A stretch of DNA of 64,000 nucleotides from an uncultured Solirubrobacteraceae bacterium (GTDB lineage: Bacteria > Actinomycetota > Thermoleophilia > Solirubrobacterales > Solirubrobacteraceae), in NCBI GenBank assembly GCA_964588985.1, contig CAZPQW010000009.1:60459-124458 (forward strand). The letters run 5' to 3'. This document shows positions 9,524 through 14,355 of the stretch, piece after piece. Position numbers and translations under genes: made by a program. The notes under the pieces are model-generated. The model saw only the letters and a program-made list of their open reading frames with translations, was not told where the DNA came from and searched no databases. Each line of letters starts with the position of its first letter. The first letter of the stretch is position 1.

Positions 9524-9577
9524 CAGCCTGCGCCGATGGCGGCTAGAGAGCGGGTAGCGCAAGCGCCGCCGCGGCGT

Positions 9578-9683
9578 GACCCGGCGGCCGTGCTCGATCA
9601 GGTCCCTGACCTCGCCGAGTGGCTACGCGGCGCGATGCGCCGCACCGGCCTTGAGCCGTTGTGCGGGAAGAAGCTCCGGGGGT
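9578..9683 (+). pseudogene. Internally deleted relic of a serine-recombinase 3' tail ending in a tRNA-Asn 3'-end core
   Basis: 9578-9628 matches 11328-11378 at 45/51 nt (DPAAVLDQVPDL[A/S]EWLR); MRRTGLEPL vs MLRTGLQPL; ends in CTCCGGGGGT. Confidence 0.7.
9674..9683. repeat. att-like direct repeat of the tRNA-Asn 3' end (partner copy 11535-11544)
   Basis: CTCCGGGGGT is identical at both sites and follows homologous recombinase-tail sequence in both. Confidence 0.65.
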
Positions 9684-9746
9684 CTGCACTGACGCCGGGG
9701 ACAACGCTGGCGCAGGACTACCGACTGAGCGCCTAACGGCGCAGCC

Positions 9747-10940
9747 CTACCTATCGCGATCGGCGACGAATCCGCGCAGGCGACGCTCTACGAACTGCGA
9801 CGGGCGCCAACCGCGACGAAGGACATCTTGGAGGAAGTCTGCGGTCCCGATGATGGGTCCAGCCGCGATGCCAATAGGACCAGTCAATGCCACCCCAGCG
9901 GCGGTGCTTGCTCCCGTGACCGTGAGAAACCGGACTGTCTTGGCCGGAAGGCTGTCAGCCCAAGTCTCAGCCGTGCAAGCCTTCAGGTACTCGCGGGCTA
10001 GCTGATGATCCTCATCAAGGTCGGAGAGCCAGGATCGAAAGCGGTCAGCTCGCTCGGCAAGGTCCAACGCTTCTAGCAGCGAGCGCTGTCCGGAGTTTAC
10101 GGCCTCCCGCACCGAGCGAGCTTCGTCAAATACGAGATCCTGAAAGTCGTGCTGAGCGTCCGCCGATCGCTCGCGCGCTAGCAGGGCCTCCGTCTTTGTC
10201 CGAAGTATCCTGGCCGAGAAAGGGTTCGTAATCATCTCGGATGCGAAGTGTCCCGCAAAGGCCATCTCCTCATTTGCCCCCAAAATCCACCCGAGCACAT
10301 CGCTTGGCCCAATTTGGGACTCAGACTTCGCGCGCCAGTGCCGGTTGACGAGTGACCAGTCAAGGTTCGTCCGGATCTTGACACGCTCTTCCTCGGCCGC
10401 TTCGATCTCGAACACGAATTGCTCAGGGAGGTTGTAGTTCGGGGCCATGAATCCGATCACATCGCGAATGAGACTCGCGACGTAGTCGGCATTTAGAGCA
10501 TCGGCGGTGGCCGATGCGTGGATTCCTGCATCGAGCCCCACATCACCAACATGGTTCAGAAACCTAGCGGCTAGCCGGCGGCCTCGCCCGGACTTGCCAG
10601 TAGCTAGACGAAAATCCTCCACAGCGAGGCGCTCGATCGCTGTGTGCGGCATTTCCACCACACCCAGAAAGAACCGCTCTGTTGGTGTATTGGCATCCTC
10701 GGTCATCACCCCCGTGAATTGATTGCAGTACGAGAACGAAACCCTCTCCGATTCGACGAGTCTGAGAAATCCGTCAATCCCCAAGCTCGCAAACAACGCT
10801 TGAAAGACGCTTCTGTCAGCAACAATGTCAACTCGCCCATAGAACAAGAGCGCCTCTGCGACCAGCCCAAGGTCTAGACGCGCCTCGTCTTCGGCAATGC
10901 CAGTACGCCGGACACACACGGAGTCGAACATCTGTGGCAT
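9747..10940 (-). CDS. Hypothetical protein (397 aa), islet cargo
   Basis: Long ORF with globular-protein composition and AT-richer codons than the host; no motif recognised. Confidence 0.85.
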   Translation of the reverse strand: MPQMFDSVCVRRTGIAEDEARLDLGLVAEALLFYGRVDIVADRSVFQALFASLGIDGFLRLVESERVSFSYCNQFTGVMTEDANTPTERFFLGVVEMPHTAIERLAVEDFRLATGKSGRGRRLAARFLNHVGDVGLDAGIHASATADALNADYVASLIRDVIGFMAPNYNLPEQFVFEIEAAEEERVKIRTNLDWSLVNRHWRAKSESQIGPSDVLGWILGANEEMAFAGHFASEMITNPFSARILRTKTEALLARERSADAQHDFQDLVFDEARSVREAVNSGQRSLLEALDLAERADRFRSWLSDLDEDHQLAREYLKACTAETWADSLPAKTVRFLTVTGASTAAGVALTGPIGIAAGPIIGTADFLQDVLRRGWRPSQFVERRLRGFVADRDR

Positions 10941-11207: not shown

Positions 11208-11573
11208 CAGGCTCTGGAGGCCGGAGTCGAGCCCGACGTAGTGCAGGCGCGGATCAACGAACTCAAGGCCGAGAAGGCGGCGGCGCAGGCGTCCCTGCCG
11301 AAGCTCGGACTGGCACCCGAACGCCAAGACCCGGCAGCGGTGCTCGATCAGGTGCCCGATCTCTCCGAGTGGCTACGCAATGCCGACGACGAGACCAAAC
11401 GCGCCCTGTTCGACGCTTTCGATCTGCGCGCCGTCTACGACAAGGCGAACGATCGGCTCTCGATCAGCGCCACACTGACCGAGACCGTCGCCACCATGCT
11501 GAGGACCGGCCTACAGCCGTTGTCCTCAACGTCACTCCGGGGGTGGGACTCGAACCCACAACTTCGAAGTTAA
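11208..11573 (+). pseudogene. C-terminal fragment of a large serine recombinase reading into the antisense tRNA-Asn 3' end
   Basis: QALEAGVEPDVVQARINELKAEK coiled coil, TKRALFDAFDLRAVYD; the terminus SLRGWDSNPQ is encoded by the tRNA T-arm; no catalytic domain present. Confidence 0.65.
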
Positions 11574-11607
11574 CAGCTTCGCACTCTGCCAATTGAGTTA
11601 CCCCGGA
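11535..11607 (-). tRNA. tRNA-Asn(GTT)
   Basis: TCCGGGGTAACTCAATTGGCAGAGTGCGAAGCTGTTAACTTCGAAGTTGTGGGTTCGAGTCCCACCCCCGGAG; cloverleaf, loop CTGTTAA, discriminator G73. Confidence 0.95.
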
Positions 11608-11629
11608 CCGCCACTTGAGCTACCCCGGA
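11608..11629 (-). repeat. Diverged tandem copy of the first 22 nt of tRNA-Asn
   Basis: TCCGGGGTAGCTCAAGTGGCGG vs TCCGGGGTAACTCAATTGGCAG (19/22 identical), directly abutting the tRNA. Confidence 0.85.
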
Positions 11630-12339
11630 GGGCGCCCAACCAACGCGTCGACCGGAACGGATGTCATCCCGTCCTCGACCTCAGCATGGCAATTAGAGCA
11701 CAGAAGGACGCACTTCCGCGCCTCGGCCCGCAACGTCTCGAGCGCAAGCGCCACGCCCTTCGCGTTGATCTCGTGTCGCTTCTGCGACGGCTCGACGTGA
11801 TGGAAGTGGAGCGCGCGCATGTTTTGGCCGTATCCGCATACGCAGCACGCGCCGCCGGCCTCCTCGACGAGGATCGCCTTCATCTTCTTGCGCCTGCGAA
11901 CGACGGCCTCCGATCGGCATCGCTTGCAGCGGTAGTAGCCACGACCATTGATCGAGAAGCCAGTCTCTCCATGCACCCTGCAGCGCATCGTCACCGTGGC
12001 GAGTCCGGCCTCCTTCGCGGCTGTCGCCTGCTCCGCGGGTCGCCTTCCGACGCCGCCCTGCGTCTTGAGCCCATATCTCCTGAGCCAGTGCCGGACCGTC
12101 GGCTTGCTGCGATCAACAGCCTCCGCGATCTGCGCGATGGATGCGCCGCTGTTGACCAACTGCTCGAGCTCTGTGCGCTCAAGCCCACCCCGCGCCGCGT
12201 GCCTCCCCTGCTTGGCGGCCTCCAACCCGTGTTTCTCAACCCAGTACGCGACCGTAGATTCGTGTCGCCCGAACCGCTGGCCTATCGCCGCGAGCGACAG
12301 GCCCTGATCCAGAAGCTGCTCCAAAGACACGCGATCCAT
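11620..12339 (-). CDS. HTH-HTH-zinc finger-HNH endonuclease
   Basis: Two repeated HTH units (GLSLAAIGQRFGRHESTVAYW / GASIAQIAEAVDRSKPTVRHW), CRVHG..RCKRC, and CCVCGY...LHFHH...KCVLLCSNCHAE HNH domain. Confidence 0.85.
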   Translation of the reverse strand: MDRVSLEQLLDQGLSLAAIGQRFGRHESTVAYWVEKHGLEAAKQGRHAARGGLERTELEQLVNSGASIAQIAEAVDRSKPTVRHWLRRYGLKTQGGVGRRPAEQATAAKEAGLATVTMRCRVHGETGFSINGRGYYRCKRCRSEAVVRRRKKMKAILVEEAGGACCVCGYGQNMRALHFHHVEPSQKRHEINAKGVALALETLRAEARKCVLLCSNCHAEVEDGMTSVPVDALVGRPPG

Positions 12340-12453
12340 GCACCCAATTGTCGTCGGCGCATGCGGTCAAATGGCGTGCCAAGTGCGTCAATTCTGTGTC
12401 CAACCTGCGCCAAGTCCGTGACTCGAAGCCGAGCACGACGAGGCCGCCACCCC

Positions 12454-14355
12454 TCAGCCCCTATCCCCCGTCTCCTCCAGCACCCGCCCATACGCCCGAT
12501 CGAACTCCAGCTTGATCTTGGCCTTGTGCTTGGCCAGGTCGCTCACGTCGCCGTTGTCCTGGCCGCGCGCGCGCTGGATCTGGCGGTCCACCCTCGCGAG
12601 CTCCAGCTGCAGGCGCTGCACCTCGAGCATCGCCGGGTCCGACTGTTCGCCGCCCGCCTCCACCACCAGCTCAGCCAGCAGCCCCTTCAGCTCCGGATCC
12701 TCCTCCAGCGACCCGCCCTCGCCGGGGCGATCGCGCATCGGCTGCTGCAGGCCGCCCTCGCGCAGGCGCCTCGCCGCGCGACGCAGCAGCCCGCTCGAGA
12801 AGTGCTCGTCAACGTCCAGGTCCTCAAGCGCCAGCGCGCCCTCCTGCGGCGAGGCGATGCACAGCGCCAGGAACGCCCGCTCTGTGTCCTCGCGCCGCGA
12901 CAGATCGCCGCCGCGAGGCCGCGGACCTGGCCCAGCGCCGCCGCCACGCTCGACCCGAGCGCCACCGCCGTTCGCCGCATCCGCCCCTGGCCGTCCCCCG
13001 CCCGCGCGCGCTCCACCCTGCCCACCCGCGGCGCCCGCGCCCGCCGCACCGCCACCCCCGCCAGCGAGCAGCGTCTCCGCGAGGCTCTCCGGCAACGCAA
13101 GGCGTCCCGACACGATCCGCGTCAGCTCCATCCGCATCGCGCTCGGCGGGAGCGTCGCGAACACCGGGCGCAGCTGCTCGACGATCCGGTCGCGTCCCTC
13201 CGGGCTCGAGTCGTCGCCGTTCGCGAGCACCCGTTCGACGCGGAAGCGCACGAACGCCACCGCCTTCGACACCAGCGCCGCCATCGCCTCCGCGCCCTCT
13301 CGCTGGATCAGCTCAGCCGGATCCGCGCCCGCTGGCAGCGGCACCACGCGCAGCTCCAGCTTGCGCTTCGCCGCCACCGTCGAGGCCTTCAGCATCGCCT
13401 CCTGACCAGCGCTGTCCGCGTCCAGCGCCAACAGCACCGTCTGCGCCATCCGCGCCAGCTCCCCCACCTGGTCCGCCGTCAGCGCCGTGCCCATCAGACC
13501 GACCGCGTTGCGCATCCCAGCCTGGTGCAGCGCGATCACGTCCGTGTAGCCCTCGCACAGGATCACCTCCCCCGCCTTTGTCGCATGCGCGCGCGCCAGA
13601 TCCGAGCCGTACAGGTGCAGACCCTTGTGGTAGACGTCGTTGTCGGACGTGTTCAGGTACTTCGGTTTCTGTTCCGCTCCCATCGCTCGCGCGCCGAACC
13701 CCAGCACCCGACCGCGCACGTCAGCGAGCGGGAACATGATCCGCGAGCGGAAGCGGTCGTACGGCTGGCCGTTCTGCTTCGAGCGCTGCGCCAGGCCAGT
13801 CGCGTACAGCTCGTCCACCGAGAACCCGCCCCTGCGCGACGCCAGCAGCACGCGATCCCACGCGCTCGGCGCATAGCCCACGCGGAACGCCCGCAGCGAG
13901 GACTCCTCAAGCCCGCGACCCGCGAGGTACTCGCGCGCCGGGGCCGCCTCCTCGGACTCCCACAGGTAGCGCTCGTAGTACGCCGTCGTGCGCGACAGCA
14001 GCTCCAGCAGCCGCTCGCGGCGTTTGCGCAGCTCCGCCGCGCGCGGGTCCTCCGCCTCCAGCTGCAGCTCCACGCCGTAGCGTTCCGCAAGCAGCTCCAG
14101 CGCCCCCTTGAAGTCCACGCCCTCCGTCTCCTGCACGAACGTGAACAGGTCGCCCGAGGCCTGGCAGCCGAAGCAGTAGTACACCTTCTGCGCCGGGTCG
14201 ATCCCGAACGACGGCGTGCGCTCGTCGTGGAACGGGCACAGCCCCTCATACCGCGCCGGACCCGCGCGACGCAGCTCCGTGCGCGCGGAGACGATCTCGA
14301 GGAAGTCCGCCGCGTCGCGCACGCGATCCTTGGACTCGTTGGTATACAGCGCCAC
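12454..14355 (-). CDS. dnaG: DNA primase
   Basis: CPFHDERTPSF zinc finger, PKYLNTS, TOPRIM EGYTDVI and DADSAG. Confidence 0.97.
   Translation of the reverse strand: MALYTNESKDRVRDAADFLEIVSARTELRRAGPARYEGLCPFHDERTPSFGIDPAQKVYYCFGCQASGDLFTFVQETEGVDFKGALELLAERYGVELQLEAEDPRAAELRKRRERLLELLSRTTAYYERYLWESEEAAPAREYLAGRGLEESSLRAFRVGYAPSAWDRVLLASRRGGFSVDELYATGLAQRSKQNGQPYDRFRSRIMFPLADVRGRVLGFGARAMGAEQKPKYLNTSDNDVYHKGLHLYGSDLARAHATKAGEVILCEGYTDVIALHQAGMRNAVGLMGTALTADQVGELARMAQTVLLALDADSAGQEAMLKASTVAAKRKLELRVVPLPAGADPAELIQREGAEAMAALVSKAVAFVRFRVERVLANGDDSSPEGRDRIVEQLRPVFATLPPSAMRMELTRIVSGRLALPESLAETLLAGGGGGAAGAGAAGGQGGARAGGGRPGADAANGGGARVERGGGAGPGPRPRGGDLSRREDTERAFLALCIASPQEGALALEDLDVDEHFSSGLLRRAARRLREGGLQQPMRDRPGEGGSLEEDPELKGLLAELVVEAGGEQSDPAMLEVQRLQLELARVDRQIQRARGQDNGDVSDLAKHKAKIKLEFDRAYGRVLEETGDRG

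Follow-up and report, generated by a model that had tools for sequence, protein, structure and literature searches.

An HNH gene tied to tRNA-Asn in Solirubrobacterales, probably a chromosomal free-standing homing endonuclease

A 64,000-nucleotide (nt) stretch of DNA from an uncultured Solirubrobacteraceae bacterium (GenBank assembly GCA_964588985.1, contig CAZPQW010000009.1, positions 60,459 to 124,458), called here in its full length the window, carries between dnaG and tRNA-Asn a free-standing gene for an HNH protein, and the stop codon of this gene lies in a tandem copy of the 5' end of the tRNA. Relatives of the gene occupy the same site in other Solirubrobacterales, where they are exchanged relative to dnaG together with the 5' half of tRNA-Asn, and we consider it probable that the gene is a chromosomal free-standing homing endonuclease which co-converts that half of the tRNA gene. 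To our knowledge, free-standing homing endonucleases are known almost exclusively from phages and organelles. The loci described here appear to place such a system on bacterial chromosomes, in hundreds of natural alleles and at a gene that cells cannot lose.

The HNH gene and its linkage to tRNA-Asn

On the minus strand the locus reads dgt, dnaG, a spacer, the HNH open reading frame (ORF), a 22-nt copy and tRNA-Asn. The ORF and tRNA calls (12339-11620 and 11607-11535) agreed with a first-pass annotation of the same DNA, which had placed the HNH gene between dnaG and tRNA-Asn, and two further points of that annotation held as well, namely a TAG stop codon inside a 19/22 copy abutting the tRNA, and a G10 in the copy as against an A10:U25 pair in the tRNA. 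The features (protein positions in amino acids, aa) are:

12454..14355, minus strand: dnaG (primase), ORF of 633 aa; tblastn places dnaG upstream at most related loci
12340..12453, minus strand: dnaG-HNH spacer, 114 nt, presumed home of the HNH promoter
11620..12339, minus strand: free-standing HTH-HTH-Zn-ribbon-HNH ORF (HTH, helix-turn-helix), 239 aa, sole copy in the assembly
12232..12336, minus strand: HTH module 1, aa 2-36; Pfam HTH_38; model helices 3-11, 16-23 and 27-36
12064..12177, minus strand: HTH module 2, aa 55-92; Pfam HTH_23/HTH_28, residues 60-89
11914..11997, minus strand: Zn ribbon, aa 115-142; C120, H123, C138, C141; model strands 115-120, 124-130 and 136-138
11674..11859, minus strand: HNH (His-Me finger) core, aa 161-222; C165/C168, H180-H181, C214, N216, C217, H218
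11608..11629, minus strand: pseudo-5' end of tRNA-Asn, 22-nt tandem copy (19/22)
11629-11616, minus strand: conserved motif TCCGGGGTAGCNC(G/A), the first 14 nt of the copy
11622-11620, minus strand: ORF stop codon, nt 8-10 of the copy
11535..11607, minus strand: tRNA-Asn(GTT), A10:U25 D-stem allele (ARAGORN; Rfam RF00005, 67.1 bits)
11563..12199, minus strand: exchanged cassette, roughly bounded (HNH starting near codon 45-47, motif, tRNA nt 1 to about 45), with bounds drawn from identity breakpoints in other genome pairs, not in this genome
15459-14365, minus strand: dgt, upstream of dnaG

The 3' end of the ORF reads ...CCT CCG GGG TAG, and positions 11629-11608, TCCGGGGTAGCTCAAGTGGCGG, adjoin tRNA-Asn without a gap. 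The mismatches between the copy and the first 22 nt of the tRNA are at nt 10, 16 and 21; A10 of the tRNA pairs with T25 (ACTC/GAGT). An independent repeat search recovered the same pair (20 nt, 90%, spacing 22), and by our own estimate, made with no tool, the chance of at least 19/22 matches at one fixed offset is about 2e-9. Across the 3.41-Mb assembly the copy is the single place with an exact match to the 11-mer TCCGGGGTAGC, and tRNA-Asn(GTT) is the sole tRNA-Asn among the 48 tRNAs of this assembly, which has 48 contigs. A consensus promoter and terminator scan, uninformative for a high-GC organism, gave no promoter between dnaG and the tRNA.

Linkage to tRNA-Asn was found well beyond this genome. 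HNH matches were present in 27 of 61 related genomes, including 20 of the 36 in the same genus, and at 26 of the 27 loci tRNA-Asn stands just downstream on the same strand, the exception being a truncated match beside tRNA-Lys. In a collection of species-representative genomes, the best 80 of 567 HNH matches (four duplicates among them) gave 80/80 loci with HNH directly upstream of tRNA-Asn on the same strand, bearing out the proposal that a free-standing HNH nuclease is tied to this tRNA. Most loci are ordered dnaG-HNH-tRNA-Asn. The relatives fall in Solirubrobacterales according to their record titles, and a scan of 401 genomes of the phylum found full-length relatives within the order only. 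Weaker Zn-HNH matches near other tRNAs at five loci (L159, L160, L164, L168 and L169), mostly convergent with tRNA 3' ends, may belong to integrated elements and were not counted as support.

The 129 non-redundant loci comprised 89 intact ones, 15 that were not full-length in one frame, 2 remnants, 22 empty sites and 1 at a contig edge. Eight of the 15 were frameshifted, one was internally deleted, two were C-terminal remnants and four had an unmatched N-terminus and may in fact be intact; the 2 short HNH remnants lay between dnaG and the tRNA. In HNH-less members of the genus, dnaG and the tRNA are separated by a spacer of about 20-70 nt, which contains a TAAAGT-like box. In the 89 intact loci the distance from stop codon to tRNA has a median of 17 nt: 26 ORFs stop at the TAG of the copy, 23 upstream of the copy and 1 elsewhere in it; at 22 loci the copy is absent and the ORF stops upstream of the tRNA; and 17 ORFs extend into the tRNA gene, 9 of them stopping at tRNA nt 8-10, so that 35/89 stop at nt 8-10 of either the motif or the tRNA. 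One metagenome-assembled genome (G016) holds two versions of the locus on different contigs (L034 and L017), one with an intact HNH gene and the other with a 3' remnant, the motif and the tRNA only; this may reflect strain heterogeneity in the bin, which would imply polymorphism within a population. DNA runs labelled rhizosphere metagenome contain matches to the locus stretch, and four sequencing runs, which offered short contigs only, yielded no contig spanning the locus and no presence/absence joint.

Residues of the Zn ribbon and the HNH core were first seen in an alignment of 15 intact relatives. C120, H123, C138 and C141 proved invariant in 89/89 intact homologues, and the core residues (CxxC...HH...CxNCH) are kept in 88-89 of the 89. 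Three PHROG families named 'HNH endonuclease' (phrog_2255, 3106 and 35854) matched at E values from 1e-25 to 1.6e-17, phrog_2255 covering residues 114-226 (E 1e-25), and phrog_8446 matched residues 7-225 (E 3.5e-13). No HNH model was found in Pfam at E up to 0.1; since Pfam and NCBIfam recognise the HTH parts only, the HNH identity rests on the motif and the PHROG families. Together with a strand-strand-helix at residues 177-222 of the AlphaFold model, these residues and matches place the protein in the HNH / His-Me finger group. The model (mean pLDDT 80) has separate folded modules, and its multi-domain character (pTM 0.48) limits the fold search, in which Foldseek returned nothing from the PDB at E <=0.001, the top rows, Cbp1 (2lvs) and the CBASS Cap5 HNH nuclease, being both weak. 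The ratio of nonsynonymous to synonymous substitutions (dN/dS) was 0.09-0.17 in 13 of the closest HNH pairs (dS 0.27-1.0), and the protein is therefore maintained while intact.

In their source records the relatives are called 'helix-turn-helix domain-containing protein' or 'transposase', the latter in JGI names. A transposase of an insertion sequence was considered and rejected: the HTH parts alone match transposase models, far below the cut-offs (IS630, 37.7 bits vs 100), and the gene is single-copy in this genome. Likewise rejected was the idea of HTH module 1 as a conserved anchor and module 2 as a variable reader, mean pairwise identity being 0.63 and 0.61, respectively. As a separate observation, the tandem HTH matched an insertion inside a ThyX-like ORF in genomes G186 (L163, E 2.3e-7) and G373 (L162, E 1.8e-8); the insertion looks like an intein, and a homing endonuclease carried by inteins may therefore use this DNA-binding module too. 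No other result given here depends on G373.

Exchange of the cassette and the linked tRNA-Asn alleles

The cassette moves relative to dnaG together with the 5' half of the tRNA, as homing with co-conversion predicts. On trees of the 75 loci with both genes, the D-arm class of the tRNA changes 17 times on the HNH tree and 43 times on the dnaG tree, shuffled labels giving means of 46.3 and 46.5 (minimum 41 on each), and the anticodon-stem type changes 34 vs 46 times (shuffles about 53.6). HNH presence or absence changes 11 times on the dnaG tree, which has 13 empty rows (shuffles: mean 12.5, minimum 10). Monophyly of 10 genomes with one cassette type was rejected by the dnaG data (log-likelihood difference 1267; approximately unbiased (AU) test, p-AU 1.6e-47), and three dnaG sister pairs with support of 96-100 were rejected by the HNH data (p-AU 4.6e-8, 3e-4 and 2.5e-3).

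Pairs of genomes with close backgrounds (flanks 88-98% identical) had cassettes that were 40-66% identical, or a cassette in one member only. In three of them (L012/L097, L125/L082 and L007/L084) dnaG has 85-100% nt identity, and identity drops to just 40-66% over a stretch that runs from about nt 140 of HNH through the copy into the 5' half of the tRNA; the genes downstream of the tRNA are as alike as dnaG in the first two pairs, and the downstream sequence is unrelated in the third. The identity breakpoints fall at the HNH 5' end or the dnaG end on one side and in the tRNA on the other. Two further pairs, L128/L047 and L005/L038, differ by presence and absence of HNH in backgrounds about 90% identical. 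Over 2346 pairs the identities of HNH and dnaG were correlated with r = 0.45; the 8 pairs with dnaG at least 90% identical had a median HNH identity of 0.61, and the highest HNH identity among pairs with dnaG below 0.7 was 0.85. The nearest HNH gene to that of the window is at L070 (87% nt identity over most of the gene, identical tRNA; dnaG 79%) and the nearest dnaG at L013 (82%; HNH 58%), no very close background being present in the sample. Sporadic distribution and discordant phylogeny, as well as a position beside a conserved target gene with flanking markers that these patterns suggest are co-converted, are features that the gene shares with free-standing homing endonucleases.

HNH-linked tRNAs differ from those of HNH-less loci. 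Positions 6-11 of the tRNA are GGTAGC in 21/22 HNH-less loci vs 51/89 intact ones, the other 38 having GGTAAC (23, including the window), GGTGGC (9) or GGCAGC (6). The first-pass annotation had taken A10:U25 for the allele that confers immunity. A10 is indeed found in 23/89 intact loci and in none of the 22 HNH-less ones; however, the canonical D-arm (G10..GAGC), present in 21 of the 23 loci first classed as empty, is also kept in 21/89 intact loci. A10:U25 is thus one HNH-linked class of several, neither necessary nor unique. The idea of a chromosomal selfish element that co-converts an immune tRNA allele stands, then, as to the pattern of co-conversion and is not supported as to that allele. 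All eight alleles tested pass the Rfam tRNA model, the empty-site allele being the best (71.6 bits) and the seven HNH-linked ones scoring 54.8-67.1 bits.

Some alleles depart further from the canonical sequence. The GGCAGC allele, in the sequences inspected, shows G14 and C21 where the canonical tRNA has A14 and A21. Six intact loci (L102, L106, L107, L108, L136 and L141) and two decayed ones (L064 and L139) have C8, G14 and C21 where U8, A14 and A21 are near-universal, apparently a tertiary base triple that has changed with compensation. Genome G036 (locus L064), the one examined for this, has no other full-length tRNA-Asn match; the allele of L106 is the one scoring 54.8 bits in Rfam vs 71.6 for the canonical tRNA. 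At 21 loci (including L006, L007, L009, L012, L013 and L017) GATGC replaces GAGC, with an extra base in the 3' strand of the D-stem, and these alleles are associated both with a single HNH clade and with the motif in its 15-nt form.

In the mechanism that we propose, the product of the ORF would be a DNA endonuclease of the HNH (His-Me finger) type that acts at specific sites and has two HTH modules besides a Zn ribbon. The cassette consists of the nuclease gene from about codon 45-47, a conserved canonical 5'-end copy of 13-14 nt and the tRNA 5' half. Lineages swap it by homologous recombination, dnaG, the conserved left flank of the locus, or the conserved start of HNH providing the left homology arm, and the tRNA 3' half, invariant across loci, the right one. 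The exchange would most likely be started by the nuclease itself, which we infer to cut HNH-less or heterologous alleles in or beside the tRNA-Asn gene; the cut would be repaired from the HNH-bearing copy, with co-conversion of nuclease gene and tRNA 5' half, which amounts to intronless homing. A linked allele that escapes cutting has to preserve the tRNA fold, since the cell has no second copy of this essential gene, and the compensated changes at nt 8, 9, 10, 14, 21 and 25 and in the anticodon stem fit such an escape, through which the linked alleles would be immune.

Several points weigh against this reading. The change counts come from FastTree trees with partial dnaG sequences, the groups for the AU tests were chosen post hoc, with the trees already seen, and the best 80 of the 567 loci are biased to HNH-bearing genomes because they were chosen as best HNH matches. 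No nearly identical cassette was seen in divergent backgrounds and the exchange therefore appears to be old or slow, which also fits long-lived balanced alleles. Since 21 of the 89 intact loci keep the canonical D-arm, and since at one locus at least with an intact HNH gene, L118, the tRNA sequence is the same as in HNH-less genomes, immunity cannot lie in the tRNA alone. A canonical 5' motif kept beside the cassette is awkward if the motif is the full target. Finally, the host may benefit from the gene, given selection on the protein as strong as that on ordinary host genes and the long presence of the family in the order.

That benefit is the basis of the best-surviving alternative, which we regard as rather unlikely: the HNH gene would serve the host, as a DNA-binding regulator or a maintenance nuclease, and would recombine in the ordinary way without nuclease drive, old HNH-tRNA polymorphisms being kept by balancing or diversifying selection, for example for escape from tRNA-targeting toxins. 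The low dN/dS and the invariant catalytic and Zn residues are what a host gene would show, as are the occurrence of the gene in four taxonomic families of Solirubrobacterales and the fact that no very recent transfer was seen; however, HNH was not found in 16/36 genomes of the genus, decayed copies occur at 17/129 loci and empty alleles are scattered randomly on the dnaG tree. Domestication of the WhiA type loses nuclease residues, and their retention here counts against a host function, as does the location of phage relatives in tRNA clusters, like known homing nucleases. In its favour there remain the resemblance of the tandem HTH to a repeat-binding protein, the conserved tandem motif at the tRNA start, and the precedent of actinobacterial WhiA, reported to be a transcription factor derived from a homing endonuclease (PMC10243135).

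The conserved motif at the tRNA start

Searching the 45 nt upstream of the tRNA for TCCGGGGTAGC and allowing up to 2 mismatches, we found the motif in 58/89 intact, 9/17 decayed and 1/22 empty loci, and in 49 of 9661 background windows. The motif starts 15 nt before the tRNA in 29 intact loci or else 19-25 nt before it. In the alignment its nt 1-11 are 77-100% conserved, nt 12 is free, nt 13 is C (93-100%) and nt 14 is G or A, the flanks being conserved at 30-50%. In 28 loci whose tRNA is off consensus in its first 11 nt, the copy is always nearer to the consensus than to its own tRNA and is therefore not homogenised from the adjacent tRNA; either selection acts on the motif itself, or the motif is renewed time and again. 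Two HNH clades without the copy have other conserved leaders, ATACACC ending 4-5 nt before the tRNA at seven loci (L090, L110, L114, L120, L126, L145 and L149), and a TAGAAT box 9-13 nt before the tRNA at eight loci, 7 of them with the GGCAGC allele. The lone HNH-less locus with the motif (L050 in G025; ttcggggtagg, 2 mismatches, 16 nt before the tRNA) has it directly after the dnaG stop codon, consistent with a clean deletion of the HNH gene.

As to the 22-nt copy, it is probably a recognition element of the protein or else goes back to an ancestral ORF-tRNA overlap and has been retained for a function. Among the possible roles of the motif, we would rank a protein recognition element first, a relic of the overlap, in which the motif keeps the stop codon after cutting by RNase P, second, and an element acting at the RNA level third. 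Two other ideas were tried, of which the first was rejected and the second gained no support. A target-site duplication flanking HNH was not apparent, the best matches at the dnaG end (...GGGG(G)TAG or ...GGGAGGGCTGA) having mostly 3-5 mismatches; nor is the motif kept mainly where the tRNA motif is mutated, being present in 38/51 loci with an intact core vs 20/38 with an altered one.

An RNA-level role for the copy, as a pre-tRNA leader or an mRNA 3' element of HNH, either of which would govern processing by RNase P or stability of the message, or else as a released small RNA, with any DNA-level role secondary, seems to us improbable. Its appeal lies in the tight packing of ORF and tRNA, with 17/89 ORFs entering the tRNA, since the mRNA would end where RNase P cuts a co-transcript and the copy would let the stop codon survive that cut in 26/89 loci; control by tRNA processing has also been proposed for SegB and the T5 nucleases (PMC2330249). 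However, the motif is equally conserved in the 23 loci where the ORF stops upstream of it, nt 12 varies and its would-be hairpin partner stays G, so that no hairpin covariation is seen (rows judged by eye), and the Rfam match is to the tRNA only and to no other family. One contig of 169 nt from an RNA library runs from the tRNA 5' half across the copy into the HNH 3' end (10 differing letters, 2 gaps); it is no evidence of co-transcription, because RNA libraries can contain DNA and a contig does not demonstrate a transcript.

Least probable by far, and already contradicted by the comparison of loci, is a neutral private scar (from strand slippage or from staggered-cut fill-in), a chance match or an attachment-site (att) duplication: an abutting tandem repeat is the product expected of fill-in or slippage, and there are apparent remnants of an integrated element on the tRNA 3' side, yet the motif is linked to the cassette, recurs in intact and decayed loci far above empty sites and background, is conserved in its 11-nt core against the flanks, and stays with the consensus in the 28 loci with a deviating tRNA. 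The insertion scar, one of the options named in the first-pass annotation, was accordingly given up as a private feature of this genome, and the att duplication of an integrative element was rejected too, as it would flank an element and involve the tRNA 3' end, whereas here the 5' end is repeated in tandem with nothing between the copies; no integrase was found among the ORFs between dnaG and the tRNA.

The remnants just mentioned concern the far side of the tRNA. An ORF of 110 aa at 11241-11573 (plus strand) runs into the tRNA-Asn 3' end, its last 13 codons overlapping the tRNA, and a 51-nt direct repeat (9578-9628 / 11328-11378, 88% identical, 1750 nt apart) brackets an unannotated ORF of 397 aa (9747-10940, minus strand); a further interval, 9536-9736 (plus strand), was grouped with the 110-aa ORF and the repeat. 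Sequence like that directly 3' of the tRNA (...ACAACGGCT...) recurs in L007, L050, L103, L132 and L142. These ORFs and the repeat, for which Pfam, NCBIfam, PHROGs and PADLOC gave zero matches, appear to be left over from an element that had integrated at the 3' end of the tRNA.

Going beyond homing with co-conversion, a fuller picture can be offered tentatively, as a possibility that we ourselves doubt: an active chromosomal gene drive at an essential single-copy tRNA, in which rival HNH lineages and tRNA-Asn 5'-half alleles co-evolve across the order and force compensated changes at tRNA positions that hardly ever vary (U8, A9, G10, A14, A21 and the 10:25 pair), the motif being the recognition element of the enzyme, kept next to the gene (as operator, decoy or self-mark) and forming with the tRNA start a direct repeat that the two HTH modules read. 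If homing at this locus is true, it would provide a natural experiment on a selfish nuclease reshaping an essential RNA gene, with compensated changes at near-invariant tRNA positions, and a panel of related DNA-binding nucleases with presumably differing specificities for one short known target region. It would also make tRNA-Asn and its surroundings poor phylogenetic and synteny markers in Solirubrobacterales, and would connect the unexplained placement of phage HNH genes in tRNA clusters, often at tRNA-Asn, with a chromosomal case open to comparative dissection. In the literature, subscription journals and supplements aside, we found no description of a chromosomal HNH-tRNA-Asn arrangement in Actinomycetota or Solirubrobacterales.

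Relation to phage nucleases and other known systems

Homologues of the HNH protein were detected by tblastn in 131 phage records, with 25-51% identity among the matches listed, mainly in the Zn-ribbon and HNH part. The phage relatives expected in tRNA regions were indeed there: at 13/13 loci examined, from different phage groups, tRNA genes lie within 1-1.5 kb (71 tRNAs by ARAGORN), homology and location together placing the protein with the HNH family of phage tRNA clusters. tRNA-Asn is the immediate neighbour in 6 of the 13 (L171, L174, L177, L178, L179 and L182), upstream in CR3, LAh_6, Muenster and Goe5 and downstream in Kaldavass and S-H38, and such neighbours in phages of Proteobacteria, Bacillota and Cyanobacteria hint that the family has long favoured this tRNA gene. 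The phage ORF overlaps the start of the downstream tRNA by 24 nt in fHe-Yen9-04 and by 7 nt in FelixO1; none of five phage junctions checked had a copy of the tRNA 5' end.

The phage genes (FelixO1, Cronobacter CR3, Acinetobacter Aci05, Yersinia fHe-Yen9-04 and Bacillus Goe5, among others) thus share with the gene of the window a homologous Zn-ribbon and HNH core (30-45% identity, about residues 100-230), the free-standing state and the position beside a tRNA, often tRNA-Asn. In contrast to them, the gene described here is chromosomal and fixed order-wide at a single-copy essential tRNA, has a conserved pseudo-5' motif and many divergent cassette alleles, and encodes two N-terminal HTH modules that most phage matches lack, a combination which appears to be new.

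Among nucleases with a published description, the HNH enzymes F-TflI/II/IV of T5 are named as homing endonucleases in a tRNA cluster (PMC2330249) and resemble this protein in that description. The same paper reports that SegB of T4 has a 27-bp site around the conserved T-psi-C motif of tRNAs and homes with flanking tRNA genes (PMC2330249), which is comparable with the cassette in the use of a tRNA-gene motif, recalling the tRNA-5'-like end of the ORF, and in inheritance with the flanking tRNA; SegB differs in its GIY-YIG fold, in being a phage gene and in using the T-psi-C arm, whereas here the acceptor/D-arm 5' end and an HNH protein are involved. In T6, microhomology drives segmental amplification, and no such amplification was seen here.

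An example of an intron-encoded homing endonuclease in cyanobacterial tRNA genes is I-Ssp6803I. Group I introns of this kind likewise have a chromosomal bacterial tRNA gene as the home and target of a homing endonuclease (PMC3984707); unlike them, the system described here has no intron and the nuclease gene lies outside the tRNA, so that the tRNA must escape cutting by sequence change and not by interruption of the site. Lastly, the CRISPR repeat-binding protein Cbp1 (PDB 2lvs) resembles the HNH protein in its tandem HTH (profile match to 2lvs_A, residues 5-92, E 3.7e-5; top Foldseek row, E 9.7e-3; NCBIfam HTH_Cbp1, E 6.8e-4; the scores are weak and under curated cut-offs). Unlike the HNH protein, Cbp1 has no nuclease domain, and the resemblance suggests, by analogy, that the two HTH modules may bind direct DNA repeats.

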